64,000 nt of DNA from Chloroflexia bacterium (GTDB lineage: Bacteria; Chloroflexota; Chloroflexia; QHBQ01; JADMIH01), in assembly GCA_036386675.1 (NCBI GenBank), contig DASVVE010000065.1:11408-75407 (forward strand). Direction: 5' to 3'. The notes under the pieces were generated by a model. That model made no database searches. It was given only the letters and a program-made list of their open reading frames with translations, and was not told the origin of the DNA. The first letter of the stretch is position 1; each line of letters begins with the position of its first letter. Below, one piece after another: positions 3,579-57,391 of the stretch. The position numbers and the translations under genes are program-made.

Positions 3579-3904
3579 CCAGTTGCTCCAGTTTCTTTGC
3601 CAAACACGCCTCTCATAGTCCTACGTACTGCACATACCCAACAGATGTATCTATCCAGGATTATAGAGCGTGCCTACCAACCCCGTCAACGCTCACTGAG
3701 ACGGTGCGGGTTGGGCCACCCACTCGTTCAACGGTGTCAATCTATGCACCAGGCCCCAGCCGGGCACCGGGAGAGGGTCAGGAACGAACCGGGTGGGGGT
3801 CCACTTAAAGCAAAACGCCCATCCGCAAAAGGGCCGGGCGTCGTAAGAGAAGCGAATGCGGCTGCTATCCGAACAAATCCTATGTAGAACCGCGACAGTC
3901 CGAA

Positions 3905-4701: not shown

Positions 4702-6315
4702 TTAGAACCACATCTCAGACTGCTGCTCGTGTGCGTCTCCATACCAGGGCAACTGTGCCGAGCTTGCACCAGGACCTTGCAAATCCACTGTGCTCTCTCG
4801 CACCGCTTTAATCGCGGCGATAAGCATCTCTGCGGGCGCTCCACGTGGTATGTAGACGCGTCTGGCCCGCACGGGACGTCCAGGCTCCCACAGGCCCTGC
4901 GGACCAAGCTCGCTCGCATGCGCCGGGTCGTCAAGATCCTCGTCAGCTACCAGCACCACGGACGGCACAGCGGGAAGCTCCCCGCTAAATCCCTCTTGCT
5001 CGGCAAGCAAAGTGTCGCCAGGCCGCAGCTCACGGGATGTGCGCGTCCCTACGACGAGATCGCTGGCTACTACAGCCACATCAACGCCACCGCCTCCCAG
5101 TACCCTTCTGTAAGCTCCCGGCGAGTCCACCGCACCGACCACCTGCACGTCCTCGCGGTGGTCAAGGTAACGCACGAGCACCTGGCGAAACAGCTTGAAG
5201 GGGTCGGCCACGAGCACCTTCACGCGGTCGGCATCCTTGGAACGCCCAAATCCCCAGTCGCCCCCCGGTTGGAGTACGGCCAGCAGACTCCGAAGGTCTA
5301 GAGGGGGGCGCACGGAGGGGGCCTGGCACTCCGCCGGATCGACCCACAGGACAGGGCCTTCCACGGTCTCCAGGACTCCGGCAGGTAGTTTATGGGCGGA
5401 CCGGCAGTCAACTACTGTCAGATCAACGGCTCCAGCTGGCGCAGTGACGTCCAACCCGGACCGCAATTCCGGCGGACATGCACCCGCCCAGTCAACAGGC
5501 CACGGTTCAAGCTCCCAACCCCAGGGGTGGGCGGCGAACCAAAGCTCTCGGAACAGCGCCGGGTCATCCGACACCACTCGCATCGTGCGACGCGGTACGA
5601 ACGTCTCGAGGCCCTCCTCAATGAGGGGCTTGAGGACAGCGACAAGGCCAGGGTCGAACTGCGTGCCTGTACCCCTATCTATCTCGGCAATGATCTCTGC
5701 CGTTGATAGTGCAGGACGGTAGGGGCGGTCGCTGGACATGGCGTCATAGGCGTCCGCAAGGCTGAGGACCCGCGCGCCCAGGGGTATGGCGTCGCCCTGG
5801 AGGCCCATCGGGTAACCCGCCCCGTTGTACCATTCGTGGTGCGATTGGGCCACGCGGGCCACGCTCAAGGGTAGCGCGTGGGCCTTCAGCATCTGCCCTG
5901 ACACCATCGAGTGCTTGGTGATCGCATACCATTCGTCGCGGTCCAACGGGCTAGACTTGTCCAGTATCGCATTCGGCACCACCAGTTTTCCCACGTCGTG
6001 CAGCATCGCCCCGCATTGCAATGTCATCATGGCTTCCGCATCAAGACCGAGCCGCCTGCCAAAAGCCACTGCGTAGCGGGCCACACGCCCGAGGTGCCTC
6101 CATGTCCAGTCGGACCGCGCCTGCAACGTAAGCACGACCTCTACCATCGGCTCTAACAGCCAGCGGCCGTCGATTTGGTTTCTGGGTGGTTCCGGTATGG
6201 GGTCCATCATATTCGTACCAATCTCGCGCAAAAGCGCTGTGGGAGGTATGTGCCGAACATCGGGAGCGAGGTCCTTTCGGCATGACAGGATTGTAACCGA
6301 GGCAGCTAGCGGCAA
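4702..6315 (-). CDS. HD-GYP phosphodiesterase with a C-terminal degenerate receiver-like domain
   Basis: HDVGK ... HHEWYNGAGYP (HD and GYP motifs) in the N-terminal half. The C-terminal approximately 200 aa resemble a NarL-type REC (VKVLVADPFKLFRQVL...VQVVGAVDSPG) with the acidic pocket degraded. Confidence 0.75.
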   Translation of the reverse strand: MPLAASVTILSCRKDLAPDVRHIPPTALLREIGTNMMDPIPEPPRNQIDGRWLLEPMVEVVLTLQARSDWTWRHLGRVARYAVAFGRRLGLDAEAMMTLQCGAMLHDVGKLVVPNAILDKSSPLDRDEWYAITKHSMVSGQMLKAHALPLSVARVAQSHHEWYNGAGYPMGLQGDAIPLGARVLSLADAYDAMSSDRPYRPALSTAEIIAEIDRGTGTQFDPGLVAVLKPLIEEGLETFVPRRTMRVVSDDPALFRELWFAAHPWGWELEPWPVDWAGACPPELRSGLDVTAPAGAVDLTVVDCRSAHKLPAGVLETVEGPVLWVDPAECQAPSVRPPLDLRSLLAVLQPGGDWGFGRSKDADRVKVLVADPFKLFRQVLVRYLDHREDVQVVGAVDSPGAYRRVLGGGGVDVAVVASDLVVGTRTSRELRPGDTLLAEQEGFSGELPAVPSVVLVADEDLDDPAHASELGPQGLWEPGRPVRARRVYIPRGAPAEMLIAAIKAVRESTVDLQGPGASSAQLPWYGDAHEQQSEMWF

Positions 6316-10900: not shown

Positions 10901-11069
10901 GCACGACGACGGAGACAGTGGGGATTTTGGATTTTGGATTTTGGATTTTGGATTGTTCGGAGAAAGAAGATACAGCGCGCTCAAGGAGAGGCTCGTTGCT
11001 CGTCGGCTGGACCGACGGAGATGTATCGACGGGTATGTGATCAGGAGAGTGGTTCAAGCTAGAGAGCAC
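7983..11069 (-). CDS. Fused GT2 (GT-A) and GT4-like (GT-B) bifunctional glycosyltransferase with an uncharacterised approximately 230-aa C-terminal domain. Start codon is uncertain.
   Basis: N-terminal SVVVLNYNG...LLLVDNGSADGS (GT2). Middle GT-B Rossmann domain with an E-x7-E-like region (RFVYGGIF...CGLPVIHAAFSEVAGVI). An N-terminal stretch is encoded by a GGATTTT heptamer array. Confidence 0.8.
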   Translation of the reverse strand: MLSSLNHSPDHIPVDTSPSVQPTSNEPLLERAVSSFSEQSKIQNPKSKIPTVSVVVLNYNGLRHLETCFTSLLSLDYPKDRLELLLVDNGSADGSLEFMRERFPTVRLVETGSNLGFAAGNNYGAERASGEYVAFLNNDTRVEPYWLTELVNSLLAGAAQGVVCTSSLMLDWAGKKIDFYSGSVNFHGFGFQPSYGLPVDAVHPEARELLFACGGSMLIRREVFLHAGGFDPDYFAFFEDVDLGWRLWLLGHRITLTPTAITYHRHHGTATDVGNHRWQVIYERNALYTIYKNYEQSNLDKILPAALLLLGQRVVRFMELGGVQLGDYDFTQARPTQSVEAGTDHVHRNGIATLLAADEFRATIEKMTPKREWLQANRKRTDEELFARFGQPGRVHLLNHETDAPYSAAHHAVLHEFGIEQLWDGQPKDVLLISPDVLPVGDIPASGSGIRAWALGKGLESRGHKVRFTMPKAAIQGRESQVPLEYVRGAWTPETLQSMVDTLAPEVIVSCGWPNLTWLPRANLPVALDLTGPHLLERIYQEHLDARANAEEKLVALERADFFTCISERQRYYFTAWLAQAGVHPDDIGNSLQVIPYSLDPEQPQHVWPQDWGGQEVRFVYGGIFLPWQNPAPALLAVASELQEQGRGRLEVIGGKHPFHAVHTGGFGPLVDQLATMPSVSMSGLLPHDALVERYTLAHVAVDVMQPNAERQLAFPSRTVHYLWCGLPVIHAAFSEVAGVIREHEAGWIVRHDDPDGLRAIVASILADPSEARRRGENAARLARERFTWDLTVDALDRFVRDPYIRSARMSRTARRDEHSTLRDPSRYVTAGGIAPHVDGLVPSQPQAARKLQTVHDRRRTVPAQVRARANEVLRSVKGAVSAPLAGQVQLPELVAGHSLGQRFYVAETGLSGVRVQVETFGRRNTSRLFLRLRDNPGASVDLFHIEIPTHNLTQGQLLALRFPPIPDSAGRAFYFVAESPDGVPGDAISLRGSARSGDLRAQRYDDGIPASGYLVMSLEYNGVTGER
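10922..10955 (+). repeat. Tandem heptanucleotide array (GGATTTT)x4 + GGATTG inside the 5' coding region of the fusion GT
   Basis: Read directly: ggattttggattttggattttggattttggattg. Translated as QSKIQNPKSKIP in the ORF. Confidence 0.9.
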
Positions 11070-11100: not shown

Positions 11101-11136
11101 CAAATCTAAAATCTAAAATCCAAAATCAGAAATACG
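11101..11136 (-). repeat. Tandem heptanucleotide array (GATTTTR)n in inverted orientation, in the 5' leader of the fusion GT gene
   Basis: caaatctaaaatctaaaatccaaaatcagaaatacg is the reverse complement of a GATTTTG/GATTTTA array. It forms an inverted pair with 10922-10955 across the start codon. Confidence 0.85.
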
Positions 11137-11140
11137 TCCT

Positions 11141-12463
11141 CTATTTTCCCAGCAGGCGGGAGACGCGGCGAGTCAGGCGAAGCACTCGGCCCTGCTCGAT
11201 CCCTTGTAGGAGCTTCTCAAGGTAGAGGATATGTTCGTCTTTGGTGCGTAGCTCATTGGTGAGGCGAGACTCCAGATTGGCGATGTGCTGGTCCTTGGAC
11301 GCTAGCTCCCGGTTCATCTCGTCCAACTGTTGCAGGTCGTGGTGGGCGCGGTCGAGTTGCAAGTCCAGCACGGCCAGGCGCTGCTCCATGCCCGCTATGT
11401 GGCGGTCGCGCGCCTCGAGTTGTTGGCGCAGCAGGCGGTCCTCGTGGTTGGCGGTCTTGAGGTCCAACAGCGTCATGAGCACCTGCGTGAGTTGCAGGCG
11501 CATGGTGTTAGCAGTGTCGCTGCTCGTTAACGGCGGGTACGCTGCCTGTATCCGCTCAAGCGCCGGTTCGAGGCCAGGTCGCACCGCCACTACCACCCCC
11601 CGATAAGCGGGCGCGGTCCGGTCCGAGTCGGAGAACGTCAGGTTGTAGAAGCGGTCGAGGGTACGCTCGAAGCCACTAGCTTTCTCGTCGCGTAGCGAAA
11701 TAAGGTAGTGTTTAGCTATCATCATCAACAGCCAGTTGTAGACGTTGGCTGCCGGGAAGGAATGAGTACGCCAGCCGTTGCGCTCGAACGCGTCACCCGT
11801 CGAGGAGAAATCAGGCAGGCCGAAATCGCGGTGCTCCCTCAGCTGCTCCTGCTGGGCATCCAATATCCAACGTATATATTCGTCCAGGGTCTCCTCGGCC
11901 ACGTCCGCTTCCACCGACTGCACGGGGTTAATCAACACGCAGGCGTGGCGGGCCACCCGCATCATCTCGGTGAGAAAGCGGTCGCGCTCTGTGTTGGGGA
12001 TATGTTCCAGGGTGTCGAGCGCCGTGACGATATCGAAGGAGCGGTCTGGGTAAGGCAGGTCCATGCCCGAACCCTGCGTGTAGTTGGGGATCGAGCCGTC
12101 GTCCGAGACCACGTCGAGCACGTGCACGTCAAAGTAGACTGGGCTGACGAAATGGTGCAGCACGCCAGGATAGCCGCCCACGTCGAGTATTTGGGATTTC
12201 GGATTTCGGATTTCGGATTGGTTGGGAGCCTGGGAAATACCGGAGATGGAGTCGGGTGACGTGCGGCTGCCGAAGCTCACGTCGGCCATGCTCTCAAGCA
12301 GGATAGTGAGCACGTTCTCGGCGATGCGCATGCGGCCATACTGGTCGAAGGGTAGGGAAAGTAAGTCGCCCTCGCGGGGGGCAAGGCTAGCCTCGAAATC
12401 CTGTCTCTGCAAGGCTGGGACTGCTCCAATCTGGGGTCTGCGTTCTGCGGGGTAGTATAACAC
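11141..12463 (-). CDS. Class I SAM-dependent methyltransferase with a C-terminal coiled-coil region
   Basis: Motif I ILDVGGYPG, followed by acidic post-I and motif II features. C-terminal heptad-like repeats (LESRLTNELRTKDEHILYLEKLL ...). Lies in the glycosyltransferase operon. Confidence 0.75.
   Translation of the reverse strand: MLYYPAERRPQIGAVPALQRQDFEASLAPREGDLLSLPFDQYGRMRIAENVLTILLESMADVSFGSRTSPDSISGISQAPNQSEIRNPKSQILDVGGYPGVLHHFVSPVYFDVHVLDVVSDDGSIPNYTQGSGMDLPYPDRSFDIVTALDTLEHIPNTERDRFLTEMMRVARHACVLINPVQSVEADVAEETLDEYIRWILDAQQEQLREHRDFGLPDFSSTGDAFERNGWRTHSFPAANVYNWLLMMIAKHYLISLRDEKASGFERTLDRFYNLTFSDSDRTAPAYRGVVVAVRPGLEPALERIQAAYPPLTSSDTANTMRLQLTQVLMTLLDLKTANHEDRLLRQQLEARDRHIAGMEQRLAVLDLQLDRAHHDLQQLDEMNRELASKDQHIANLESRLTNELRTKDEHILYLEKLLQGIEQGRVLRLTRRVSRLLGK
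12194..12222 (+). repeat. Tandem heptanucleotide array (GGATTTC)x3 + GGATTGG inside the methyltransferase coding region
   Basis: gggatttcggatttcggatttcggattgg. Translated as QSEIRNPKSQI, the same frame and peptide pattern as in the GT gene. Confidence 0.9.
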
Positions 12464-12503
12464 GTGAAACGTGAAACGTGAAACGTGAAACGTGAAACGT
12501 GAT
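12462..12503 (+). repeat. Tandem heptanucleotide array (ACGTGAA)x6 in the divergent promoter region between the methyltransferase and the EEP gene
   Basis: acgtgaaacgtgaaacgtgaaacgtgaaacgtgaaacgtgatgg. Starts 1 nt after the methyltransferase start codon position. Confidence 0.9.
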
Positions 12504-14735: not shown

Positions 14736-14749
14736 GGGTGCCATCCTTT

Positions 14750-14784
14750 CGATTTTGGATTTTAGATTTCGGATTTTGGATTGC
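14750..14784 (+). repeat. Tandem heptanucleotide array (GATTTTG/GATTTTA/GATTTCG)n in the 5' leader directly upstream of the mrp/apbC RBS
   Basis: cgattttggattttagatttcggattttggattgc. Ends with GGATTG like the other arrays. Confidence 0.9.
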
Positions 14785-15027: not shown

Positions 15028-17520
15028 ATGACTTCGGATGTATCTACCAGGACCGTGCTCCACGGAGCGGCGTCTCACTCGCGCACTCGGCGGATGCTTA
15101 TGCTGATTGGCCCCCCTGCCCTCTTCATGCTGCTCAGCGCATTGTTCCTGTGGCGGCCCATAGTCACGGGGCAGGTCTATTTGCCCACCGACCTGAGCTA
15201 CAAGTACGACTACATGTGGATAGGTCACGAGCCGCCCGCGGGCACGAAGATAGACCAGAACCACACCGTATCCGACGTGTCCGACTATTTCTATCCCTCC
15301 GTTACCTACGCTATCGAGCGCCTGCGCGCCGGGAACTTTCCCCTGTGGAACCCCTACATCCTGACCGGAACCCCCTTCTTTGCCTCAGGCCAGCAGGCAG
15401 TGTTGGACCCTGTAAACCTTATGGCTTTCCTGGCGGGGCCGCACGACTACTGGACCTGGGCGGCCTGGCTGAGGCTGGCGCTGCTGGGCTTTACCACCTA
15501 CGGGTTCATGCGCGCGCTCGGCAGGAACGCGGCGGCTGGAATAGCGTCGGGTGTGGTTTTCATGGTGTGCGGGTTTGCCGTCGTATGGCTCAATTACGCC
15601 ATTACCTGGTCCCTTGCCTGGATGCCCGCGCTTTTCTGGGCGAGCACGCGGCTCTTGCAGACCGGGCGGCTGCCGTGGATAGGGCTTACCGGAGTGGCAA
15701 TGGGCGCGTTACTGCTCAGTGGGCACCCGGAAACGCAGTTCCTGTGCGGGCTGTTGTGGGCGGCCTACATGGTGTATGCCCTGTTCGTTTTCAGGGCGAG
15801 TACGAGACAGCGGTTTGCCGGGTCTGGACAGGTCGCTGCCGCTGTGGCCCTGGGCCTGGGCATGGGCGCGGTGCAGTTCGTACCCACGCTCGACTTCATG
15901 GTCTCGAGCGGCGCATTCGGCGCGCGTTCCACCGACGTCCAGCCCTTCAACCTTGGAGAGACGGCGTTGCGCTTCATCAGCCAGCTATTCCCCAATTGGA
16001 CGGGCACCCCGCTGGCCGACACTTATTGGGTGCGTCCCGAACTCACCAATTTCAACGAGCAGACCGGTTATATAGGCATCCTCGCCCTCGGGTTGGGTGC
16101 GCTGGGTGCCGCGTCGATGTGGAAGCGCGACCGGCTGGTGCCTTTCTTCGGCATGTGTTCGGTGCTCGCGCTCCTGGTAGCAATACGCGCGCCCGGTTTC
16201 CACCTTGTGAAGGCGTTGCCCGTATTGAGCGCAGGGCATGGGGTGCGCTGGCTGGTAGTCGTGTCGTTCTTCGGGGCGGTGCTGGCCGGGTACGGCGTCG
16301 AGGCGCTGATGAAGCAGTCTTCCGGCTCGCGCAGGTTGAGGGATAGCGGGCTATGGCTGGCGAGTGGCGCGCTTGCGGCGTTCGGTCTCATGCTGGCGAT
16401 CTACCTGGGCATACGTGACCTTAGCTGGGACCGCGCCTGGAACCCGATGCTCAGCCACGTAGACATGGCGCGACTCCTCTATCCCGCGCAACTGGCTAAT
16501 AACTGGCCGGTGGTCTTCCTGGGGCTGGGGGCGCTCGTAGTGCTCGCCCGCTGGAGGGGCTTGATACCGGCGGCTGCCTTGCCCACGCTCATCGTGGCCC
16601 TGCTGTACGCCGACCTCTGGACGTTCGGCCATGGCTACAACCCCACAACGCCACGCGAGGCCATCATGCCGCCCACACAGGTGACAAGTTACCTGTCCGA
16701 ACACGCGGGCCACGACCGCATGGCGGGCACCATCAACCTGCTGCGCCCTAATGTTGCCATGCTGTTCGGCTTGCGCGATCTGCGCGGGTACGAGCCTATC
16801 GTAGACGATGCCTTCGCGCACCTGTATGAGGATTTCTACCACCAGTTGAGCACTCCCGTGTTCGACGTGCAACGCAAGCAAGACCTGGAGCTTACCGCGA
16901 TGGAGCAGCGCCAGTTGAACATTGCCGGGGTGCGCTACGTCGCCACCGTCCGCAAGCCCAGGGTGGACGGCAGCGCCAGGCCCTACACGTTCATCCTACA
17001 GGAGCAACGCGCCGCGCTTTATGAGAACCTCGAAGCGTTCCCCCGCGCCTATGTCGTATTCGGCTCCCGCGTCGTTCCTGACACGGACGAAGCCACTGCG
17101 GTCCTGCGATCGCCGGAACTGGACCCAGGTCGCACTATCGTGCTGGCTTCCGGCCAGGAAGTAGCCCCTCCACCCGGCTTGGACAGGACCACCGCTCTCG
17201 TAACGTGGCTGGCGGATGAACCTGAACGAGTCGAGTTAGAGGTCACCCTGCCGCAAGCAGGTTGGCTCGTCTTAAGCGACAATTTCGCGAGCGGTTGGGA
17301 GGCTATGCTGGACGACAACCCGGCACCACTCCTGCGGGGAAACGTGGCCTTTCGCGCGGTGGCCGTACCGGCAGGGACGCACAACATCAGCTTCCACTAC
17401 CGGCCCGCCCTCTTCTTCGTCGCCGCGACTATAAGTACCCTGTCTGCCGCACTCGCACTCAGCCTGGGCCTAATACACCTCATACGGCGGTCTCGTCGCT
17501 CTAGCCCCACTAACCACTAA
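15028..17520 (+). CDS. Large polytopic membrane protein, YfhO-like / GT-C-type (putative glycosylation or glycan export function)
   Basis: At least 12 predicted TM helices over the first approximately 480 aa, a approximately 300-aa soluble domain, and a terminal TM helix; this architecture is typical of YfhO-family proteins. The overlapping 511-aa +2 frame ORF has aberrant composition and is rejected. Confidence 0.5.
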   Translation: MTSDVSTRTVLHGAASHSRTRRMLMLIGPPALFMLLSALFLWRPIVTGQVYLPTDLSYKYDYMWIGHEPPAGTKIDQNHTVSDVSDYFYPSVTYAIERLRAGNFPLWNPYILTGTPFFASGQQAVLDPVNLMAFLAGPHDYWTWAAWLRLALLGFTTYGFMRALGRNAAAGIASGVVFMVCGFAVVWLNYAITWSLAWMPALFWASTRLLQTGRLPWIGLTGVAMGALLLSGHPETQFLCGLLWAAYMVYALFVFRASTRQRFAGSGQVAAAVALGLGMGAVQFVPTLDFMVSSGAFGARSTDVQPFNLGETALRFISQLFPNWTGTPLADTYWVRPELTNFNEQTGYIGILALGLGALGAASMWKRDRLVPFFGMCSVLALLVAIRAPGFHLVKALPVLSAGHGVRWLVVVSFFGAVLAGYGVEALMKQSSGSRRLRDSGLWLASGALAAFGLMLAIYLGIRDLSWDRAWNPMLSHVDMARLLYPAQLANNWPVVFLGLGALVVLARWRGLIPAAALPTLIVALLYADLWTFGHGYNPTTPREAIMPPTQVTSYLSEHAGHDRMAGTINLLRPNVAMLFGLRDLRGYEPIVDDAFAHLYEDFYHQLSTPVFDVQRKQDLELTAMEQRQLNIAGVRYVATVRKPRVDGSARPYTFILQEQRAALYENLEAFPRAYVVFGSRVVPDTDEATAVLRSPELDPGRTIVLASGQEVAPPPGLDRTTALVTWLADEPERVELEVTLPQAGWLVLSDNFASGWEAMLDDNPAPLLRGNVAFRAVAVPAGTHNISFHYRPALFFVAATISTLSAALALSLGLIHLIRRSRRSSPTNH

Positions 17521-17540
17521 CCACTAACCACTAACCACTG
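17508..17540 (+). repeat. Tandem heptanucleotide array (CTAACCA)x4.5 overlapping the stop of the YfhO-like gene, upstream of folE
   Basis: cactaaccactaaccactaaccactaaccactgag. A single inverted copy (tggttag) lies 30 bp downstream, next to a TATACT -10-like hexamer. Confidence 0.9.
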
Positions 17541-18192: not shown

Positions 18193-19239
18193 ATGTCAGA
18201 AACACTCAGCAGCATCCAAAACTGGGCAGGCACGCTGCCAGGGCTGGGGTCGAGGCAGCCGGAGGTCACGTTCAAGTACGAGCGTGACGGCGTGCGTTCT
18301 TACACTCTGTCGTATGCCGACAACCGGCTGCGGTTCAAGCACTACCTGGACAGACCGGGCGCAAAACCATCCCTCCTGGAGCGGAGCGCACGAGACTTAG
18401 GGCAGGCCGAGGCTACCGCATTAGAGTCGTATGCTGCCGAGGGGTTAGCGCCACAGCTTGTTTGGTCCGGCGAGATGCCGGCCCAGTTAGGAGGCTACGG
18501 GGTCGTTTACAGGCGTGTGGAGGGGCTTACCGCCGAGGCTGCATACCTGACCGAGGCCCATGCGGAGAGACTTGCCCATGCTCTTCGCCAGGTACATAGC
18601 CGCACCTTGCAGTCGAAACTCCTGGCCCCGCAACCACGCAACCTCGCGGGCTGGTGGAACCGGGTGCACGAGCAGTACCGCGACCTGCCACCAGAGTTCA
18701 CAGCCGCGCTGCCACCGACGTTGGAGGAGTCGCTCGTGGGGCTGGTGCAGTCGGTGTCAGGTGATGCCAACGCCCACATCCGCTTCTGGCAGGGGGCCTC
18801 GCTGGTGCCGGTCCACGGCAATCTCACGATGCGCAACGTTATATTTGATGACCGCCAGGTGACGCTGGTGGACTGGCCTCGCTTTGGTTTGGGCGACCCG
18901 GCGTACGAGCTGGCGAATGCAGTGTGGGAAATGGCCCTCTCGGGTAACGAGCCGCTAGTGGAGCACTTGGCGAGTTCGTACCTGCGACAAGCCGGGGATA
19001 TCATGCTTGAGCGCCGGGTGCTGATCTACCGTCGCCTGCTGCCGTTCGGCCGCTTCCTCGACTTCCTGCACAGCCAATGGCGCGGCGAGTCCTCGGTCTC
19101 TCACCGGGCAGACACGAGCAGCCGTTATCTCTCAGCCGCTATGTCGGTCTACGGCTGGCAGCAGCAAACAGTAGATCAGACAGTAAGCCAATTCGAGTCT
19201 TGGCTAACAACACGACAAAAAGGTCAGTCAAGCAACTAA
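18193..19239 (+). CDS. Aminoglycoside/choline-kinase-like phosphotransferase (APH fold), possibly catalytically atypical
   Basis: Brenner-like motif VHGNLTMRNVIFDD (Asn where the catalytic Asp is expected) and LVDWPRFGLGDPAYELAN (Mg-binding DxE/D region). Confidence 0.55.
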   Translation: MSETLSSIQNWAGTLPGLGSRQPEVTFKYERDGVRSYTLSYADNRLRFKHYLDRPGAKPSLLERSARDLGQAEATALESYAAEGLAPQLVWSGEMPAQLGGYGVVYRRVEGLTAEAAYLTEAHAERLAHALRQVHSRTLQSKLLAPQPRNLAGWWNRVHEQYRDLPPEFTAALPPTLEESLVGLVQSVSGDANAHIRFWQGASLVPVHGNLTMRNVIFDDRQVTLVDWPRFGLGDPAYELANAVWEMALSGNEPLVEHLASSYLRQAGDIMLERRVLIYRRLLPFGRFLDFLHSQWRGESSVSHRADTSSRYLSAAMSVYGWQQQTVDQTVSQFESWLTTRQKGQSSN

Positions 19240-19247
19240 GTCTAGCC

Positions 19248-19283
19248 TCACGGAGGACCTTACGGAGGACCTTACGGAGGTAA
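19248..19283 (+). repeat. 12-nt direct repeat (CGGAGGACCTTA)x2.5 just downstream of the phosphotransferase stop
   Basis: cacggaggaccttacggaggaccttacggaggtaa. Confidence 0.8.
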
Positions 19284-19306
19284 TTGAGCACCTAAAGACG
19301 CTTCCC

Positions 19307-19437
19307 GTCATTTCGAGCGGAGTGAGAAATCTCGTCCTCTACCCCGATGCTCCGTTATTCCTGTGAGACTCTGTGGCTGAGAGAAAGGTGGTATTTGGGT
19401 GGTGAAAGGCGAGATTTCTCACTCCGCTCGAAATGAC
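19307..19437. repeat. 131-bp element bounded by 28-bp perfect inverted repeats (MITE-like or long hairpin), copy 1
   Basis: GTCATTTCGAGCGGAGTGAGAAATCTCG at 19307-19334 is the exact reverse complement of 19410-19437. Intergenic between convergent genes. Confidence 0.85.
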
Positions 19438-19504
19438 AGAGGGGAAGATGGTTCTACAACTTCCCCCTCGCTCGTATTCACGCACCAACAATAGCAAGCC
19501 GCAT

Positions 19505-19540
19505 CACGTTTCACGTTTCAGCACCACGTTTCACGTTTCA
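19505..19540 (-). repeat. GAAACGT heptamer array (two doublets) overlapping the stop of the GNAT gene
   Basis: cacgtttcacgtttca gcac cacgtttcacgtttca is the reverse complement of (TGAAACG)n. Same unit and same terminal GAAACGTGATG as at 12462 and 54667. Confidence 0.85.
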
Positions 19541-20061
19541 CCAACCAGTCTGTCCAGCCCCTCCCTATCGAGCCTGTAGATGTGCCAGTCAGCCAGATGG
19601 CGGGCACCCAACCGCTCGTAGAAGTTGATGGCGTGTTGGTTCCAGTCGAGCACGGCCCACTCGAAGCGACCGCAGCCCCGGCGTATCGCTTCCTCGGCGC
19701 AATGGCTGAAGAGGGCGTACCCCACACGCCTGCCTCGGTACTCCTCTAGCACAAATAAGTCTTCCAGGTACAGGGTCGGCAGGGCCAGGAAGGTGGAGTA
19801 AGTCTCAAAGACGAAGGCGTACCCTGCAACGTCACCCTCGTGCTCGGCAAGGAAGATCTCAAACCGGGGCCGGGTGCCAAAAGCATCGTCCAGGAGGCGC
19901 GACTGTGCCGTCGCGTCGGGGGGAGGTAACTTCTCGAAGTCAGCCAGCGCGGTAATAAGACGCACGATGGCCGGCCCGTCCTGAGGCGTTGCGCGGCGGA
20001 CGCTCACGCCGGGCGTTTGGGACGCTATTTCACCTGCTGAATTAGACATCGGTGGCTCCAA
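19531..20061 (-). CDS. GNAT-family N-acetyltransferase
   Basis: Acetyl-CoA-binding motif RGRRVGYALFSHCAEEAIRRGCGRFEW, with the GNAT beta4-alpha3 pattern. Confidence 0.8.
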   Translation of the reverse strand: MEPPMSNSAGEIASQTPGVSVRRATPQDGPAIVRLITALADFEKLPPPDATAQSRLLDDAFGTRPRFEIFLAEHEGDVAGYAFVFETYSTFLALPTLYLEDLFVLEEYRGRRVGYALFSHCAEEAIRRGCGRFEWAVLDWNQHAINFYERLGARHLADWHIYRLDREGLDRLVGET

Positions 20062-20073
20062 TCCAGCAGAAGA

Positions 20074-20418
20074 CTACGTCCCCTTCTCTCCATGTTCCTC
20101 ACCGGCTTCAGGCTGCGCCTGGCGATGCCGCCCGATTTCGCCCAGGGTGTCATGGGGCTTGTTCACCATCTCGCCACCGTCAGCGGTGCCCTGGGCGGAT
20201 TGCTTGCTGTAATAGTATTCCGGCTCGCGCCCGGCGTGCTCCATGTGGTCGGCTCCGGCAGCCTCACCTGATACCTCTCCGGTGGCCTGTGCCGTCTCTG
20301 TGCCCGCCTCCGACACCATCTGGTACTCGGTGCCCATTGCTTGAGCCGTGGGGCCTCCTAGCCTGGCTACGTCCTGCTCCTCCGGGTCACCGCCGCTGTT
20401 CTGGGGTGTGTCCGCCAT
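20074..20418 (-). CDS. Small acidic, Gly/Glu/Ala-rich, low-complexity hypothetical protein downstream of the dynamin-like gene
   Basis: 114-aa ORF tightly spaced between the dynamin-like and GNAT genes on the same strand. No recognisable domain; composition suggests intrinsic disorder. Confidence 0.4.
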   Translation of the reverse strand: MADTPQNSGGDPEEQDVARLGGPTAQAMGTEYQMVSEAGTETAQATGEVSGEAAGADHMEHAGREPEYYYSKQSAQGTADGGEMVNKPHDTLGEIGRHRQAQPEAGEEHGEKGT

Positions 20419-20445
20419 GTTGCTCTCCTCTATGCTTGTAATGCC

Positions 20446-22221
20446 TTACCTGCCTATTATCTCCACCTGCGCTCGGAGCGACTCGAGACTCTCCTGGATG
20501 CGTCCCAATTCAACGTCTGCCGCCGTCATGCGGGTCTGCTCCAGCCGCACGAAACGAGTGTACGGGGCGAGGGCTTCCCGGATGCGGTTGGTGGACTGGT
20601 CAAGCTCGGTGTTGAACTGCGTGCTCATGGCGGCTACCAGCTTGTCGCGTAGCTCCTCGGTGCGCTCGCGGAACTCCTGCTTGGCCTTGCGCTTGCGGTA
20701 CGGCAGCACGAACAGGCCAGCCGCCCCCGACACCAGCGCGGCTGTGATGCCCGTTATGTCAATAAAGGCCGCCGCGAAGGCCAGCGACACAAGAACGCCC
20801 ACGGCCACCCCGCCGCCGGCCACCACCATCTGTCCCACCGCGGTCCTCATGTCCTGGGCTATGGCATCGGCCTGCTGCCTGCGGTCGTAGGTCTCCACCA
20901 CCCGCCGGGCTTCCAGCACCACCGAGCGCAACAGCGACTCGCGGTTTGACTCGAATTGCCCGCCGATGCTACCTATCACGTGCTCGTCGAACCCCGGCGT
21001 TGAGGCTACCCCGGCGTCTCTCCGGCGGCTGACGTACTGCATCACCGCCTGCCACAGCCGCAGGTCCTGGTCCACCATCCAGTTGATGAGGCCGCTGACC
21101 GCGTCGTCAATGCGCCGGGCGCTGTCGGCTACCACCCGGTCCTCGAACTCGCGCTTGATCTTTTCGGAGTTGAGCAGGTCGCGGATGCGGCCCACGCGCA
21201 GGGTCTCCTCGAAGAAAGCATCGCCGCGCTCGCGCATCTCGTAGATAATGTTTTCGATTTGTGAGAGGCGTCCCGCGAACTCCCTCTCCATGTCCCCACG
21301 GTACAGCCCTATCTGGCCCTCTATGTTCTCTACCGTCTTGAAGTCCTCGGCCAGCACCGCCAGCCGGGTGCGCGTTACCTGGTGGTACCGCTCCGCGACT
21401 CGTCCGGCTATGCCCAGCGGTGTGGACAGCTTGAGGCGGATGCGGCCTACTTCGTCCAGCGTGTTGAAGATGTACTTCTCCAGTTGCTCCATGCGGCTGG
21501 CGTTCATGATGGCGTCCCGCTCGATACCCGGCTGCATCTCACGCGCCCTTTGTGCGAGCCGTGCTGACACCGGGTAAATCTCCGGTTGCTGGCCGAGCAG
21601 CGCCAGGCTGTTCTCCTGGATGAAGTGGAGCACGCGGTCGAGGTCTTCGGACGTCTGTAGCAGGTCGATCTTGTTGAGCACGACTACGATCTTCTTGCCC
21701 CACTCCCGTATCGTCTCCATGAAGCCCCGCTCAGACTCGGTGAAGGGGCGGTCGGCGGAAGTAAGGAAGAGCACCATGTCGGAGCGAGGCACGAAGGTGC
21801 GGGTCAATTCCTCGTGCCGCCGGATGATGGCGTTGGTGCCCGGCGTGTCCACGATACTGATCTCGCGCAGGAACTCGGCGGGGAAGGTGCGCTCGGTCAC
21901 AAAATCAGAGACAAGGCGCTCGGTAGGCTGATCGCCATGGCGCAAGAGGTTGATGGTGGCGGTAGTCGGTGTCACGCCTTCCGGCAGCACCTTCCGCCCC
22001 AGTAGAGCGTTTATGAAGGCCGACTTGCCCGCGTTGAACTCACCCACCACCACGAGCAGGAAAAGCTCCTCCAGGTCCTCCACAGCCTGCCGCAGCGCCC
22101 CCCTGTCCTTGGGGTCAGGCTCCAACGGCTCTATGGCCTGTAGCAACTGACCGAGCGCCTGCCGCTCGGCGTGCCTTATCTCCAGTTGTCGTTCGTCCAG
22201 GATGTCTATCATGCTTACCAT
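20446..22221 (-). CDS. Bacterial dynamin-like GTPase with a C-terminal transmembrane/paddle segment
   Basis: G1 GEFNAGKS, G2 T, G3 DTPG, G4 NKID; long helical stalk; hydrophobic segment near the C-terminus. Confidence 0.85.
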   Translation of the reverse strand: MVSMIDILDERQLEIRHAERQALGQLLQAIEPLEPDPKDRGALRQAVEDLEELFLLVVVGEFNAGKSAFINALLGRKVLPEGVTPTTATINLLRHGDQPTERLVSDFVTERTFPAEFLREISIVDTPGTNAIIRRHEELTRTFVPRSDMVLFLTSADRPFTESERGFMETIREWGKKIVVVLNKIDLLQTSEDLDRVLHFIQENSLALLGQQPEIYPVSARLAQRAREMQPGIERDAIMNASRMEQLEKYIFNTLDEVGRIRLKLSTPLGIAGRVAERYHQVTRTRLAVLAEDFKTVENIEGQIGLYRGDMEREFAGRLSQIENIIYEMRERGDAFFEETLRVGRIRDLLNSEKIKREFEDRVVADSARRIDDAVSGLINWMVDQDLRLWQAVMQYVSRRRDAGVASTPGFDEHVIGSIGGQFESNRESLLRSVVLEARRVVETYDRRQQADAIAQDMRTAVGQMVVAGGGVAVGVLVSLAFAAAFIDITGITAALVSGAAGLFVLPYRKRKAKQEFRERTEELRDKLVAAMSTQFNTELDQSTNRIREALAPYTRFVRLEQTRMTAADVELGRIQESLESLRAQVEIIGR

Positions 22222-22389
22222 TTACCGGCCAAAGTGATTTGCCGCCCTTGATCGCAGGCTTACCGGCTCCAAAGTCTTTCGCATGCCGGTACAATTACCG
22301 TGAATTCAATCGGCCATACTTCTACATAGCAAAAAGGTTGCCATTGTGCGCTGTGGCGGTGTGTATCTCGCTCCGTCTAGAGAGCCAAG

Positions 22390-22541
22390 CCCCCCTTGTC
22401 ATTCCGACCGCAGTGAGGAATCAGGTGGAAGTCGTGCATTGTTGCATTAGGGAGCAAAGCCGACAAGGCCACTCCTGTGCCCCAATTCAGCAGCGTTCCT
22501 ATCCACCTGATTCCTCACTGCGGTCGGAATGACAAGGGGGG
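22390..22541. repeat. Approximately 152-bp element bounded by 39-40-bp perfect inverted repeats (copy 2 of the family at 19307-19437)
   Basis: CCCCCTTGTCATTCCGACCGCAGTGAGGAATCAGGTGGA at 22391-22429 is the exact reverse complement of 22502-22540. The core GTCATTYCGASCGSAGTGAGRAATC is shared with copy 1. Confidence 0.85.
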
Positions 22542-22611
22542 AAGTGAGTCCTGGGGCGCAGCATACTGCTTGCCAATCGCTTGTGCCGCCTGGAAGGTCA
22601 GGGCGGCTCGA

Positions 22612-24339
22612 CTACTCCAGGGGCACTGTGAACCAGAAGGTGCTGCCCACGCCTCCCGGACCTTCCTCCACGCCGATATGGCCCCCATGCGCCTCCACCG
22701 CCAGGCGCGAAATGTAGAGGCCCAGTCCCAGACCTTGCGCGCTGATCTCTTTGCCCCTGTCTCCCCTGTACGCCCTGTCGAAGATGCGCCTGCGCTCCTC
22801 CGGCGGCACCCCCGCCCCCTGGTCCGTCACCGACACCATCAGGCTCGCCGGGGCCAACTCTGCGGTAGTGTACTCGCTGGCGGGCAGTACGAAATGTTTC
22901 TCAGGCGGAGTCCGCTCCACGGCTACCATGATAGCGCCACCGGAGGGTGAATACTTGACCGCGTTGGTGATGAGGTTTGTCAGCACCTGGTCGATGCGAC
23001 GTGCGTCCATCTCGACCTGGGGCAGGTCAGACTCTATACGTACGTCGACGGTGTGAAAGTTTGGCGCGTGGCTCTGCTCGGTGCTGATGCGCCCCGCCAC
23101 GCTCATGACCAGTGCCCCCAGGTCACCAGGCTCCTTGTTGATAGCCTGCACGCCCGACTCCAGCCGCCCGGAGTCAACGAGGTCGCCCACCATGCCGCTC
23201 ATGCGCAGGGCGTTTTCCTTGACCAGCGAGACGTAATTGACCTCTTCCTGGAGGCCGAGCCTGCCTAGCCGTCGGGATAGCATTTGGGCATAGCCGCTGA
23301 TCACGGTGAGGGGTCCGCGTAACTCGTGCGATAGGATGCTCAGGAACTCCTCTTTCATAACATCGGCTTCCCGCTCTTCCGTGATGTCGCGCACCAGAAT
23401 CACCGCGCCATCGCGCCCGCCACCGGGCCGCCGCACCGGGGAGGCTGTCAAGCTCAACACTCGCTCGTCCTCGCGCACCACCCACCTGATGTGGTAGTTC
23501 CGGCACTCGTCACCGCGCTCGAATACCCTGCCCAGCGGCCAGTCCTGCCCGTCGTCCTCGCCAGCGTGCTCTCCCGAAGCCGCGCGCCAGGCACCACTCA
23601 ATACGCAGCTACCCACCAGGCTCGACATCGGCATGCCGAGGATGCGCGCGGCCGCCCGGTTCGCCCGCACGATGGTGCCGGAATTGTCACACATGAGCAG
23701 GCCGTCAGACATGCTGCCCAGTACCGTCTCCATCTCGGCAACGCGCCGCCGGAACTCGCTGTCAGCCGCGACCAGTGCCTTCTCATGCATGACCGCGTTG
23801 GAAATCGACAGGCCAAGTAGTTGCCCCACCACGCGCAACAGTTCTAGGTGGACCATGTTGAAGGCGTTGTAGTTGTGGCTGGATAGGGTCAGCACACCCC
23901 AGATCGTGTTGACGGCCACAATGGTAATGGCGGCCCAACTTTGGGTGCCGGCTTCCTTGGCGGCCCGCGAGACGAACCCGCCGGATTCTTCAAGGCGTTC
24001 GCTACGAGTGACAGGGCCGCCGGACTCCAGTACCAGGCGCAGCGCCGGCTCGTCGGGGGCGAGCACAGACCGCTTCTCGTTGAGGTCTTCCGGCAGGTTG
24101 TGCCTGACCGCAAGCAACCACGTGCCGTCGGGCTGGGGCACGTAAATGCCGCCCCTGTGAGCACCCGTAACCTCGGCTATTCGCCCCAAGGCGCTTTGCA
24201 GCAGTTCTTCGGTGGTCTCGGTGGAGTTTATTGCCGTGGAGATGGAGTCGATGGCCCAGAATACGCGCGTTTGCTCCTCCAGGCGCGAGGCCAGGTTCTG
24301 CCAACCGCTGTTGTCCGGTCCGTCCCAGAAGTTCCCCAC
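22612..24339 (-). CDS. Sensor histidine kinase (GAF + PAS + HisKA + HATPase_c), cytoplasmic
   Basis: H-box FLSILSHELRGPL, N-box NLITNAVKYS, G-boxes DQGAGV / GLGLGLYIS. Confidence 0.9.
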   Translation of the reverse strand: MGNFWDGPDNSGWQNLASRLEEQTRVFWAIDSISTAINSTETTEELLQSALGRIAEVTGAHRGGIYVPQPDGTWLLAVRHNLPEDLNEKRSVLAPDEPALRLVLESGGPVTRSERLEESGGFVSRAAKEAGTQSWAAITIVAVNTIWGVLTLSSHNYNAFNMVHLELLRVVGQLLGLSISNAVMHEKALVAADSEFRRRVAEMETVLGSMSDGLLMCDNSGTIVRANRAAARILGMPMSSLVGSCVLSGAWRAASGEHAGEDDGQDWPLGRVFERGDECRNYHIRWVVREDERVLSLTASPVRRPGGGRDGAVILVRDITEEREADVMKEEFLSILSHELRGPLTVISGYAQMLSRRLGRLGLQEEVNYVSLVKENALRMSGMVGDLVDSGRLESGVQAINKEPGDLGALVMSVAGRISTEQSHAPNFHTVDVRIESDLPQVEMDARRIDQVLTNLITNAVKYSPSGGAIMVAVERTPPEKHFVLPASEYTTAELAPASLMVSVTDQGAGVPPEERRRIFDRAYRGDRGKEISAQGLGLGLYISRLAVEAHGGHIGVEEGPGGVGSTFWFTVPLE

Positions 24340-25456: not shown

Positions 25457-25630
25457 ACAGCTTCTAAACGCCAAGACGCGGAGACGCCAAGAACCACGCC
25501 AAGCTAGGATTGTGGCACAAGCAAAAGGACCGGAGTGCAACATCACGTACTCCGGTCCTTTTTCTACTCTCCATACCTTATTTCTCTTGGCGCGTTCTCT
25601 GCGTCTCCGCGTCTTGGCGTTTAGTTACCC
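25457..25630. repeat. Approximately 170-bp cruciform-like intergenic repeat element with an embedded rho-independent terminator (copy A)
   Basis: Outer 24-bp perfect inverted repeat CTAAACGCCAAGACGCGGAGACGC / GCGTCTCCGCGTCTTGGCGTTTAG. Central hairpin GGACCGGAGT-loop-ACTCCGGTCC at 25527-25558, flanked by an A-run and a T-run. Shared core (CGCCAAG)x3 and TACTCTCCAWACCT. Confidence 0.85.
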
Positions 25631-31074: not shown

Positions 31075-31250
31075 TAGACGGAAACGCCAAGACGCAAAGA
31101 CGCCAAGGACCACGCCAAGTTTTGGCAGGTGTTCATAAGTAAAAGGAGCAGGGTACGACAGTACGTACCCTGCTCCTTTTTGTACTCTCCAAACCTCTAT
31201 ACTCTCTTGGCGCGTCCTTGGCGTCTTGGCGTCTTGGCGTTTCCGTCTGT
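31075..31250. repeat. Copy B of the cruciform-like repeat element with embedded terminator
   Basis: Outer inverted repeat AGACGGAAACGCCAAGACGC / GCGTCTTGGCGTTTCCGTCT. Central 13-bp hairpin GGAGCAGGGTACG / CGTACCCTGCTCC at 31145-31176 plus T5. Same flanking core as copy A. Confidence 0.85.
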
Positions 31251-54666: not shown

Positions 54667-54764
54667 CTGAAACTTGAAACGTGAAACGTGATGGTACTCA
54701 ACGCACCATTGCGATGCACATGAGACCACATACCACAAGCCACACCACGTTTCACGTTTCAGAA
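54667..54764. repeat. Inverted pair of GAAACGT heptamer arrays flanking a approximately 55-bp spacer
   Basis: ctgaaacttgaaacgtgaaacgtgatgg at 54667-54694 and cacgtttcacgtttca at 54748-54763. The right array overlaps the stop of the small ORF at 54759. Confidence 0.85.
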
Positions 54765-57310: not shown

Positions 57311-57391
57311 CATTATAAATTACGAATTACGAATTACTGGCGAACCGGCATCTTGTCATTCGTAATTCGTAATTCGTAATTCGTAATTACT
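57311..57391. repeat. Inverted pair of ATTACGA heptamer arrays (3 + 4.5 units) around an 18-nt spacer in the helicase 5' leader
   Basis: aaattacgaattacgaattac ... cattcgtaattcgtaattcgtaattcgtaatt; predicted approximately 20-bp stem. Confidence 0.9.

Follow-up and report, generated by a model that had tools for sequence, protein, structure and literature searches.

Single-domain GIY-YIG proteins of the Ssn type (cd10448) are site-specific nucleases which act on single-stranded DNA (ssDNA) only; their first characterisation, along with that of their target motifs, the Ssn-related motifs (SRMs), dates from 2025 and concerned Neisseria and Wolbachia (Chenal et al. 2025, Nat Commun 16:2388; PMC11893778). 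The neisserial target NTS (CGTCATTCCCGCGMAVGCGGGAATCYRG) is an oriented hairpin which is bound by Ssn on the GTC...C strand only and is nicked a few nucleotides upstream, the GTC before the palindrome being most important for cutting and the C after the palindrome for binding (PMC11893778). SsnA binds neither the RNA version of the motif nor double-stranded DNA, and binding and nicking have been demonstrated for the homologues of N. meningitidis, N. elongata, N. wadsworthii and Wolbachia (PMC11893778). SRMs are found near 71% of ssnA homologues, and the NTS-ssnA-NTS architecture was likened by the authors to insertion sequences and to the repetitive extragenic palindromes (REPs) with their REP-associated tyrosine transposases (RAYTs); in N. 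meningitidis DNA which carries NTS transforms less well owing to the system (PMC11893778). In their census of SRMs per genome against the presence of ssn, the figure for genomes with more than 200 SRMs was 81%. The main text of that paper makes no mention of Chloroflexi, Bacteroidetes, Cyanobacteria or Acidobacteria, and a literature search yielded no follow-up paper on variants of the SRM motif. The stretch analysed here (the window, 64,000 nucleotides of contig DASVVE010000065.1 from a Chloroflexia bacterium) contains two palindromic units, element 1 and element 2, which are probably inverted doublets of an Ssn-related hairpin repeat and thus a variant form of the Neisseria NTS/dRS3 kind.

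The closest named architecture to these elements is that of the neisserial NIMEs, dRS3-RS-dRS3 units in which the 'RS' spacers of 50-150 bp fall into sequence families and whose arrays vary dynamically from strain to strain (Bentley et al. 2007; PMC1797815). In both cases two inverted palindromic repeats are placed around a spacer (ATTCC..GGAAT here; ATTCCC-N8-GGGAAT in Neisseria), the window units measuring 131 and 152 bp. The neisserial units form long arrays by surface-protein genes and were thought to be genus-specific, whereas those of the window are solitary units in a Chloroflexia host, with arms which are perfect complements over 28-40 bp. The NIME type of architecture, once considered specific for Neisseria, has counterparts in a Chloroflexia genome.

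Arms found in the gonococcus proved to be the dRS3 repeat of Neisseria (ATTCCC-N8-GGGAAT), and the Ssn/NTS system was therefore recognised as a match. NTS and window arms are both short oriented hairpins which start with GTC-AT and end with AT-C, lie between genes, with many copies of NTS and probably also of the window type, and belong to repeats which flank genes for single-domain GIY-YIG proteins of ~95 amino acids. The oriented hairpin with a 5' GTC and a 3' C is present in element 1 (GTC-ATTTC...GAAAT-C) as well as in element 2 (GTC-ATTCC...GGAAT-C), and the same GTC...C layout recurred in arms which were found beside GIY-YIG genes without imposing it as a constraint. Aligned to each other, NTS reads CGTC-ATTCCCGCG-MAV-GCGGGAAT-C and the window arms read GTC-ATTYCGASCG-SAG-TGAGRAAT-C. 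The NTS stem is continuous over ~8-9 bp, whereas the stem of the window arms, termed GA-type in the following, contains a break in the form of a symmetric tandem GA and has a 2-bp GNA mini-hairpin as its cap. The two also differ in their hosts, the GA-type class occurring mainly outside Pseudomonadota and here in a Chloroflexia bacterium, and in that the window copies are isolated inverted doublets with homogenised arms. The elements were placed in the Ssn-related kind because of the GTC...C frame and a protein identity of 53% described below, and were filed as a variant because their arms lie outside the published SRM string. They do not form a new category but belong to a GA/GNA-type class which seems to be widespread and is missed by the published consensus, a second architectural class beside that described in 2025. 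As this class dominates outside Proteobacteria and escapes the published string, existing censuses probably undercount the system, and its arms offer new pairs of nuclease and site for ssDNA tools.

The arms, read in several hundred copies, begin with GTC, followed by a 5-bp stem A-T-N-N-Y and by GA; then come an inner hairpin, minimally N-C-GNA-G-N', a further GA, the return strand of the stem, and C. In the window arms these parts are the stem ATTYC, tandem GA, the mini-hairpin, GA, the return strand GRAAT and the terminal C. Positions 7, 11, 14, 17, 20 and 21 were free in the search pattern, which permitted an unbiased test for covariation. Among 205 matches the pair 7/21 was Watson-Crick in 98% (C-G 126, T-A 75) as compared to 53% in shuffles, and the pair 11/17 in 93% (G-C 105, A-T 50, C-G 36) as compared to 39%. 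Pair counting in 140 arms gave 98.3% of cells paired versus 89.3% after shuffling and 109 cells changed on both sides versus 32.9, values which none of 500 shuffles reached; with the pairing slid as a control, at most 63% were paired. The covariance analysis which had been proposed in the preliminary description of the two copies revealed covariation inside single arms. Partner arms have other covarying outer stems (ATTGC/GCAAT, ATCCC/GGGAT, ATCCT/AGGAT, ATCTC/GAGAT, ATGCT/AGCAT) and inner hairpins ranging from 7 to ~35 nt. In the orthologous copies L256 and L169 (fetched loci are designated by L numbers), where the flanks are only 73-76% identical, neither arm has been lost; the inner stem shows compensatory changes, and the spacer has diverged. 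Inverted arm pairs numbered 157 in all DNA fetched, nine of them with identical arms including the two of the window, and in most of them a short arm is paired with one that is longer or otherwise different, the spacer having a median of 30 nt. The feature conserved across the family is the hairpin inside each arm and not the complementarity from arm to arm. The earlier view that complementarity is maintained within a copy consequently applies to the window copies, but not to the family as a whole (9 of 157 doublets).

At the apex of the arms GCGAAGC was counted 49 times, GCGCAGC 37 times, GCGGAGC 24 times and GCGTAGC 18 times, with the covarying forms ACGNAGT and CCGNAGG occurring as well. 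GCGNAGC and CCGAAGG are known as the 'mini-hairpin DNA' motif, whose stability is far greater in DNA than in RNA (PMC13037366), and the apex of the family arm is exactly the GCGNAGC described by Hirao and colleagues. The literature on this motif deals with its extraordinary stability as DNA and its presence at ssDNA initiation signals (PMC13037366). There it is a biophysical motif found at a few phage and plasmid origins, whereas the family considered here is a dispersed genomic repeat, and the window copies, unlike the motif, are degenerate at the closing pair (G.T, C.T).

Some arms are built in a more elaborate way. Comparison of L314 and L318, which are near-identical assemblies of one Chloroflexi locus, showed a net insertion of 23 nt in the inner hairpin of the right arm (GACCCTTCGGCTACGCTCAGGGTGAC vs GACCCTTCGCGGAGTTTATCCTGAGCGCAGTCGAAGGGCTCAGGGTGAC), with ~29 nt gained and a few lost; the insert resembles a portion of another arm. 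Long inner hairpins may accordingly originate from the nesting of arms in arms. A doublet of the element 1 subfamily in the Chloroflexota metagenome-assembled genome (MAG) PEA bin11 (L074, 3589-3740) shares the TCTCGTCCCTCACCCC sub-arm, and its right arm, instead of reverse-complementing the left arm, has GA..GAA..GA on the same strand as that arm (GATTTCGAACGAAGTGAGAAATGAC). Both mini-hairpins of this doublet would form on one strand, in a predicted fold resembling a four-way junction. A location of the doublet 10-14 nt inside an additional, outer inverted repeat was seen in L024 (660-930), L089, L091, L094, L107 (Acidobacteriota), L133 (Ignavibacteria) and L152, with ACAGGCTGCGGAAAAA ... TTTTTCCGCAGCCTGT and GAGACTGTGTAAAAA ... 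TTTTTACACAGTCTC as examples, so that the full repeated unit in those lineages is larger than two arms. A near-perfect palindrome of 26 nt, GTTCACCGAGAACGTTCTCCGTGAAC, sits at the same point of the right arm (CTCGG|AATGAC) in L021 (~3640-3680) and in a genome locus near L130, and its presence in two unrelated contigs suggests another small palindromic element which targets the arms of this family (GTCATT arms).

Besides the arms themselves, the genes next to them connect the family to Ssn. In the alignment of one orthologous pair a small open reading frame (ORF) starts ~50 nt past the left arm and ends in the right arm, whose GGAATGAC supplies its stop codon; the product is a GIY-YIG domain of ~92 amino acids (Pfam PF01541). 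Seven loci ascertained by their arms have a GIY-YIG ORF between or beside the arms. Ascertainment by the protein gave GTC-hairpin arms or doublets beside the GIY-YIG gene in all eight viral-contig loci, arms in 4/4 loci of other assemblies (a Chloroflexi MAG, two other metagenome-derived lineages, and Coleofasciculus chthonoplastes), and arms by the gene in 5/5 isolate records (Planktothrix agardhii, Rhizobium sp. CIAT894, Novosphingobium aromaticivorans, Spirosoma oryzicola, and Neisseria gonorrhoeae). The sequence of the arms varies with the lineage of the GIY-YIG protein, for instance GTCATTCCCGCGNAGGCGGGAATC, GTCATCCCAGGGCTTGACCCTGGGATC and GTCATTGCGAGGAAGAATGACGAAGCAATC, and the protein family is very large with at least 8,000 candidates at E <= 1e-5. 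A protein associated with GA arms is 53% identical to the NTS-flanked gonococcal ORF (E 2e-32). The nearest solved structures of the family are the UPF0213 proteins 1ZG2 and 1YWL, which were assigned to the 'stand-alone' bacterial Slx1-like group (Dunin-Horkawicz et al.; PMC1564403). Flanking of an ssn gene, as in the Neisseria system, was hence found at the level of the family, by way of PF01541 and the 53% identity.

Two further observations were made around these genes. On plasmid p1 of Planktothrix agardhii (L330, NZ_LR882964.1 18347-19622) the Ssn-like gene and arrays of arms are contained in a defence island, with a type IIL MmeI restriction-modification gene on one side of the Ssn-like gene and drmA of DISARM on the other. 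Partial duplications in tandem, which repeat every 18-27 nt and comprise up to 3-4 units, were seen on the outer side of complete arms, the unit being composed of 4-12 nt of flank and the first 10-18 nt of the arm. They occur at 17 of 611 arms as compared to 5 in a displaced control window (L154 2660-2830, L016 on the minus strand at ~5960-6060, L069, L083, L027, L067 and L059; in L323 and L330 downstream of the GIY-YIG gene). As these duplications are located on the side where Ssn is reported to cut, one may speculate that they are repair scars.

The family is very large and crosses phyla, the core being present in nearly every bacterial phylum. The degenerate core used for the scans (GTCATTNCGANCGNAGNGANNAATC) was found at 54 loci in viral contigs and at least 120 loci in species-representative genomes, and the exact 25-nt core of the window (GTCATTYCGASCGSAGTGAGRAATC) at at least 120 metagenome loci. 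Among the matches listed, the hosts were Acidobacteriota, Chloroflexota, Bacteroidota (including gut Phocaeicola), Planctomycetota, Desulfobacterota, Nitrospirota/Nitrospirales, Gemmatimonadota, Patescibacteria, Burkholderiales and a Nanoarchaeota bin. Most of the genome matches are MAGs; the isolate Hymenobacter lutimineralis carries the degenerate core, too. A literature search with the literal repeat sequence gave no match, nor did blastn of a consensus doublet against plasmids, a search in which the query was of insufficient length. When 5,584 ORFs were clustered all against all, no neighbour family was present in more than 10 of 174 loci, with a cut-off of 90 amino acids which missed the small GIY-YIG ORFs.

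In the window the exact 25-nt core matches four times (19307+, 19413-, 22398+, 22509-), with 0.00 matches expected from 100 dinucleotide shuffles. The cores of elements 1 and 2 differ at 4 of 25 positions (7 T/C, 11 G/C, 14 G/C, 21 A/G), and each of these differences is mirrored exactly between the two arms of a copy. The complementarity of the arms of element 1 extends to 37 nt at 89% (19307-19343 / 19401-19437) with the outer 28 nt perfect, and that of element 2 is 100% over 40 nt with 72 nt in between. An inverted-repeat search and reading of the sequence upheld what the preliminary description had said of the two copies, namely positions 19307-19437 and 22390-22541, perfect arms of 28 and 40 bp, the common 25-nt core, location between genes, and arms which differ between copies and stay complementary within each. 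Membership of the two copies in a dispersed repeat family was likewise supported, since the search for more copies of the core led to hundreds of other genomes and the window copies are not the only two. Two statements of the preliminary description require qualification. The internal sequences, described as unrelated, are indeed unrelated between the two copies, but each spacer belongs to a subfamily in which it is conserved. The changes described as compensatory between arms are mirrored in both arms as stated, but the change at 7/21 is also compensatory inside the small hairpin of each single arm. The coordinates of the elements and their parts are collected in the table.

Table. Positions of elements 1 and 2, their arms and associated features in the window
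Feature	Position	Strand	Description
Element 1	19307..19437		131-bp inverted doublet (arm / 81-nt core-to-core spacer / arm), 'TCTCGTCC' subfamily
Element 1 left arm	19307..19334	+	core 19307-19331 = GTC-ATTTC-GA-GCGGAGT-GA-GAAAT-C, then TCG; 0 core mismatches
Element 1 right arm	19410..19437	-	core 19413-19437 (minus); exact reverse complement of left arm, 28 nt
Element 1 spacer	19335..19409		homologous to spacers of the L309/L312 orthologues, orientation inverted
Element 2	22390..22541		152-bp inverted doublet, 40-bp perfect arms, 'AGGTGG' subfamily
Element 2 left arm	22390..22429	+	CCCCCCTT, core 22398-22422 = GTC-ATTCC-GA-CCGCAGT-GA-GGAAT-C, then AGGTGGA
Element 2 right arm	22502..22541	-	core 22509-22533 (minus); exact reverse complement of left arm, 40 nt
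Element 1 intergenic block	19246..19541		12-mer tandem repeat 19246-19280; GGGGAAG/CTTCCCC hairpin 19441-19466; CACGTTT heptamer array 19501-19541

Measured from core to core the spacer of element 2 is 86 nt, as compared to 81 nt in element 1. The neighbours of element 1 are an APH-family kinase gene (18193-19239, plus strand) and a GNAT gene (19531-20061, minus strand), whose 3' ends converge on it, and element 2 is located between the stop of a GAF-PAS histidine kinase gene (22612-24339, minus strand) and the start of a dynamin-family GTPase gene (20446-22221, minus strand). Folding of single strands predicted long hairpins for both elements with -73 to -104 kcal/mol (z -9 to -15.5 versus shuffles), the values being -80/-72.6 kcal/mol for element 1 (z ~-9.5) and -101/-104 kcal/mol for element 2 (z ~-15). 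Two further doublets are found on the same contig within 10 kb beyond the window, one with a difference of a single base between its arms and one with quite different arms, which makes four doublets (eight arms), all intergenic, in the ~74 kb formed by the window and the ~10 kb adjoining it. The window is contained in the JGI metagenome contig Ga0334948_000017 (238.8 kb), and its proteins are listed at NCBI under a Chloroflexia MAG. L001 and L002, which are independent assemblies, and the NCBI MAGs of relatives also contain this locus with its element. The assemblies L002 and L003 of the same locus end in or beside element 1, as is to be expected from the tendency of repeats to cause such breaks.

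This lineage provides unusually clear evidence of turnover and of concerted evolution of the arms. Syntenic loci of relatives (L306, L309/L310, L312/L313) were obtained through the cluster of the dynamin-family protein adjacent to element 2 (at least 90% identity). At the site of element 1 (site B), the region between the APH and GNAT genes is 29 nt long in L306, and element 1 is absent together with the tandem repeats flanking it; L309 and L312 have an orthologous element of 131 nt with the same flanks and an 81-nt core-to-core spacer. Both arms read ATTTC..GCGGAGT..GAAAT in the window and both read ATTCT..GCGCAGC..AGAAT in L312, which corresponds to six differences per arm, all of them mirrored, and in L309 the arms are unequal (GCGAAGC vs GCGGAGC). 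The spacer of element 1 matches those of its orthologues at 59/81 and 57/81 positions when flipped and at 49/81 and 48/81 in direct orientation, and all four spacers of the element 1 subfamily are exactly 81 nt from core to core. At the site of element 2 (site A) both arms have CCGCAGT in the window and ACGTAGT in L312, the orthologue in L312/L313 having identical arms of a sequence unlike that of the window. In L306 the arms at this site are unequal, GCGTAGC and ACGGAGT, and are devoid of the CCCCCCTT extension. L309 carries at site A a member of the element 1 subfamily to which a third arm has been added. Near site A, L306 contains one more perfect doublet, and L312 has a paralogue of the element 1 subfamily at a third site, places at which the window has none. 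Gain and loss of elements have thus occurred among genomes whose proteins share at least 90% identity; the two arms of an element show concerted evolution, and its spacer can be inverted. The other orthologous pairs fetched all carry the element, and no empty site was found among them. From the mirrored arm changes and the flipped spacer we infer recombination or templated repair between the arms, in agreement with the homogenisation or gene conversion within the element which had been suggested beforehand. Mirrored changes may also stem from replacement by another copy of the family. Gain, loss, inversion and homogenisation of arms on such short timescales bear on the question of whether such repeats are mobile or domesticated.

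At ~3610-3815 of L309, and also in L310, a classical MITE (a miniature transposable element with inverted repeats) of ~200 bp interrupts the right arm of a GTCATT doublet. Its terminal inverted repeats are 17 bp long (GGGTGTCTAATAA...), and a clear 5-bp target-site duplication, TCAGA, is present.

Several observations weigh against the interpretation of elements 1 and 2 as Ssn-related doublets or against their mobility. The SRM string HGTCWYN(0-2)YYVSBRHN(0-5)WNVSBRGN(0-2)RNCYNB, which does match the gonococcal NTS, matches 0 of 209 GA-type arms and none of the window arms; this string is a search heuristic from 29 genomes and not a biochemical definition. An ssn/GIY-YIG gene was not found in the 64-kb window, ~10 kb of adjoining contig and ~45 kb of close relatives, and a cognate nuclease of this genome is assumed. 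The inner pair 11/17 of the window arms is G.T in element 1 and a C.T mismatch in element 2, at a position where 93% of the family members are Watson-Crick. In nearest-neighbour DNA folding the energies of single GA-type arms, at only -2 to -2.7 kcal/mol, do not surpass those of shuffles, whereas the same model assigns -8.9 kcal/mol (z -3.4) to the gonococcal NTS. The arm hairpin is therefore supported by covariation rather than by predicted energy, and by the stability of GNA loops and of tandem GA, for which this energy model has no terms. Mobility, finally, is suggested only by presence and absence in fast-evolving intergenic DNA, and at the copies inspected no target-site duplication, empty-site junction or transposition intermediate was resolved.

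A mechanism can be proposed by analogy to the characterised system. In replication, repair or DNA uptake, when this region is exposed as ssDNA, each arm would fold on its 5'-GTCAT strand and become a putative substrate of a cognate Ssn nuclease, whose gene would lie elsewhere in the genome. GA-type arms are presumably recognised by Ssn as NTS is, and due to the inverted arrangement with GTC outward each DNA strand would offer one site at its 5' end. Alternatively, the whole unit may fold to a hairpin or cruciform with a stem of 28-40 bp. Recombination or repair templated from arm to arm would keep the arms identical and could invert the spacer, and nicking in combination with the long hairpin or cruciform may be the driving force of homogenisation and spacer flipping. 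The doublets look like ORF-less counterparts of arm-ssn-arm units, a relation which would be analogous to that of REPINs, inverted REP doublets, to RAYT. A more far-reaching idea, which we consider doubtful, is that GA-type doublets are the non-autonomous form of a still-active mobile element with a 95-amino acid GIY-YIG ssDNA nuclease as its sole protein. It is compatible with the gain and loss in relatives, the arm-ssn-arm units of ~450 bp, and the concerted evolution of orthologues. If true, it would represent a class of prokaryotic transposons without a DDE, serine, tyrosine or HUH enzyme, and nicking outside the outward arms followed by fold-back or arm-templated repair would explain new copies, homogenisation, flips and partial duplications.

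The assignment to an Ssn-related repeat has to be compared with other explanations of long inverted repeats between genes, the likeliest of which, though still improbable, is that of transcribed structured RNAs or of RNA-level hairpins serving as stabilisers, processing sites or terminators independently of a nuclease. Both elements are in probable untranslated regions (at convergent 3' ends and between co-directional genes), the RNA hairpins are predicted to be very stable, and many single arms elsewhere stand just upstream of ribosome-binding sites. Rfam searches of the window and nine doublet-bearing loci in gathering mode, however, yielded no family match except one tRNA elsewhere, and in E-value mode only sub-threshold models of miRNA hairpins were returned for 19200-22650 (MIR1515 with 43.6 bits vs a gathering threshold of 140). 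The hairpin is followed by a T-run on neither strand, the symmetric elements have no transcript orientation, and L306, which is without element 1, shows that it is dispensable in a close relative. As in addition the GNA mini-hairpin has a markedly lower stability in RNA than in DNA (PMC13037366) and the characterised partner is specific for ssDNA, SsnA leaving the RNA version unbound (PMC11893778), the structured RNA considered in the preliminary description found no support. Chance palindromes or assembly artefacts could be suspected since the window is from a metagenome contig and most of the genome matches are MAGs. This reading is refuted, and its probability practically nil, as no core match is expected in shuffles, the locus is present in independent assemblies and MAGs of relatives, and the motif occurs in the isolates Hymenobacter, Planktothrix, Coleofasciculus, Spirosoma and N. 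gonorrhoeae.

Two kinds of mobile repeats share parts of this architecture. Classical MITEs, deletion derivatives of insertion sequences with a DDE transposase, would have the arms as their terminal inverted repeats and would agree with the length of 130-150 bp, ends which are often TG...CA (TGTCATT...AATGACA), dispersal, presence or absence in relatives, and the breaks of the assemblies L002 and L003 at element 1. The target-site duplications looked for accordingly were seen at none of the copies inspected, though the genuine MITE in L309 has one of 5 bp. Clustering of the ORFs of 174 loci gave no transposase-sized gene bounded by arms, in 148 of 157 doublets the arms differ in length and sequence unlike terminal inverted repeats copied from a master, and covariation inside a single arm is unexpected for a duplex repeat bound by a DDE transposase, which leaves this origin very unlikely. 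Still less likely are REPINs mobilised by a RAYT (TnpA-REP, a Y1/HUH transposase), although the resemblance is considerable. They too consist of an ssDNA hairpin with a 5' foot and an imperfect palindrome in inverted doublets, which fold alternatively to a long hairpin or a 'clover', show compensatory changes, persist at orthologous sites, and are recognised by a small nuclease whose gene the repeats flank (Bertels and Rainey 2011, PMC3116915; Quentin et al. 2018, PMC6006769). Enterobacterial REPs even have GCGNAGC apices (PMC2817692), and RAYT-like ORFs were detected in two independent arm-containing loci. The foot, however, is GTCA in all arms rather than the GT[AG]G of canonical REPs (PMC6006769), the core is found across phyla whereas REP families are lineage-specific, and the gene family consistently flanked by arms is a different one, GIY-YIG instead of HUH/Y1. 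The RAYT-like genes of L012/L019 and L228 are flanked by repeats of their own (GTGG-CGCAGGCTTCCAGCCTGTGGG type) and not by GTCATT arms, and an iterated hidden Markov model search of 11,033 ORFs in 2.2 Mb of arm-containing DNA gave no further Y1 genes.

The RAYT probes were sequences of IS608 TnpA and E. coli RayT, which give leads only. A match to them in L110 was dropped as the sequence looks unrelated, and a link of the family to RAYT was rejected on the grounds that Y1-like ORFs occurred in two independent loci only, each with its own GTGG-foot REP. The ORFs have NH[IV]H and Y...NP motifs and are located at L012 1170-1817, L019 1410-2165 and L228 6775-7491, with the REP-like hairpins GTGGCGCAGGCTTCCAGCCTGTGGG (L012/L019) and CTGGGAACGCGCCTGTCTTCGAAGCTCCAGCTTCGTCAGCGTGAC (L228). 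As they share contigs with GTCATT doublets, two systems of hairpin repeats coexist in the same genomes.

Other repeats are found in the window as well. Short intergenic tandem arrays of heptamers are located at 10922-10954, 11102-11133, 12189-12219, 12462-12502, 14747-14782, 17507-17539, 19501-19541, 54668-54691 and 57318-57388, with the units GGATTTT, ATTTCGG, ACGTGAA, TTTGGAT, CCACTAA, TCACGTT, TGAAACG and AATTACG. Some form inverted pairs of arrays (10924-10954/11103-11133; 57312-57337/57362-57387). The arrays resemble the STRR repeats of cyanobacteria, yet the host is a Chloroflexia bacterium, and in other phyla similar arrays often abut GTCATT arms (L014, L027, L069, L144). A second two-copy palindromic family of ~160-170 bp at 25464-25624 and 31076-31248 is unrelated in sequence to the GTCATT arms. 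Its outer arms consist of ACGCCAAG-type octamer repeats over 31-35 nt with 94-97% complementarity, and its interior contains a conserved perfect hairpin with a T-run (aaaaggaccggagt...actccggtccttttt) which looks like an intrinsic terminator.

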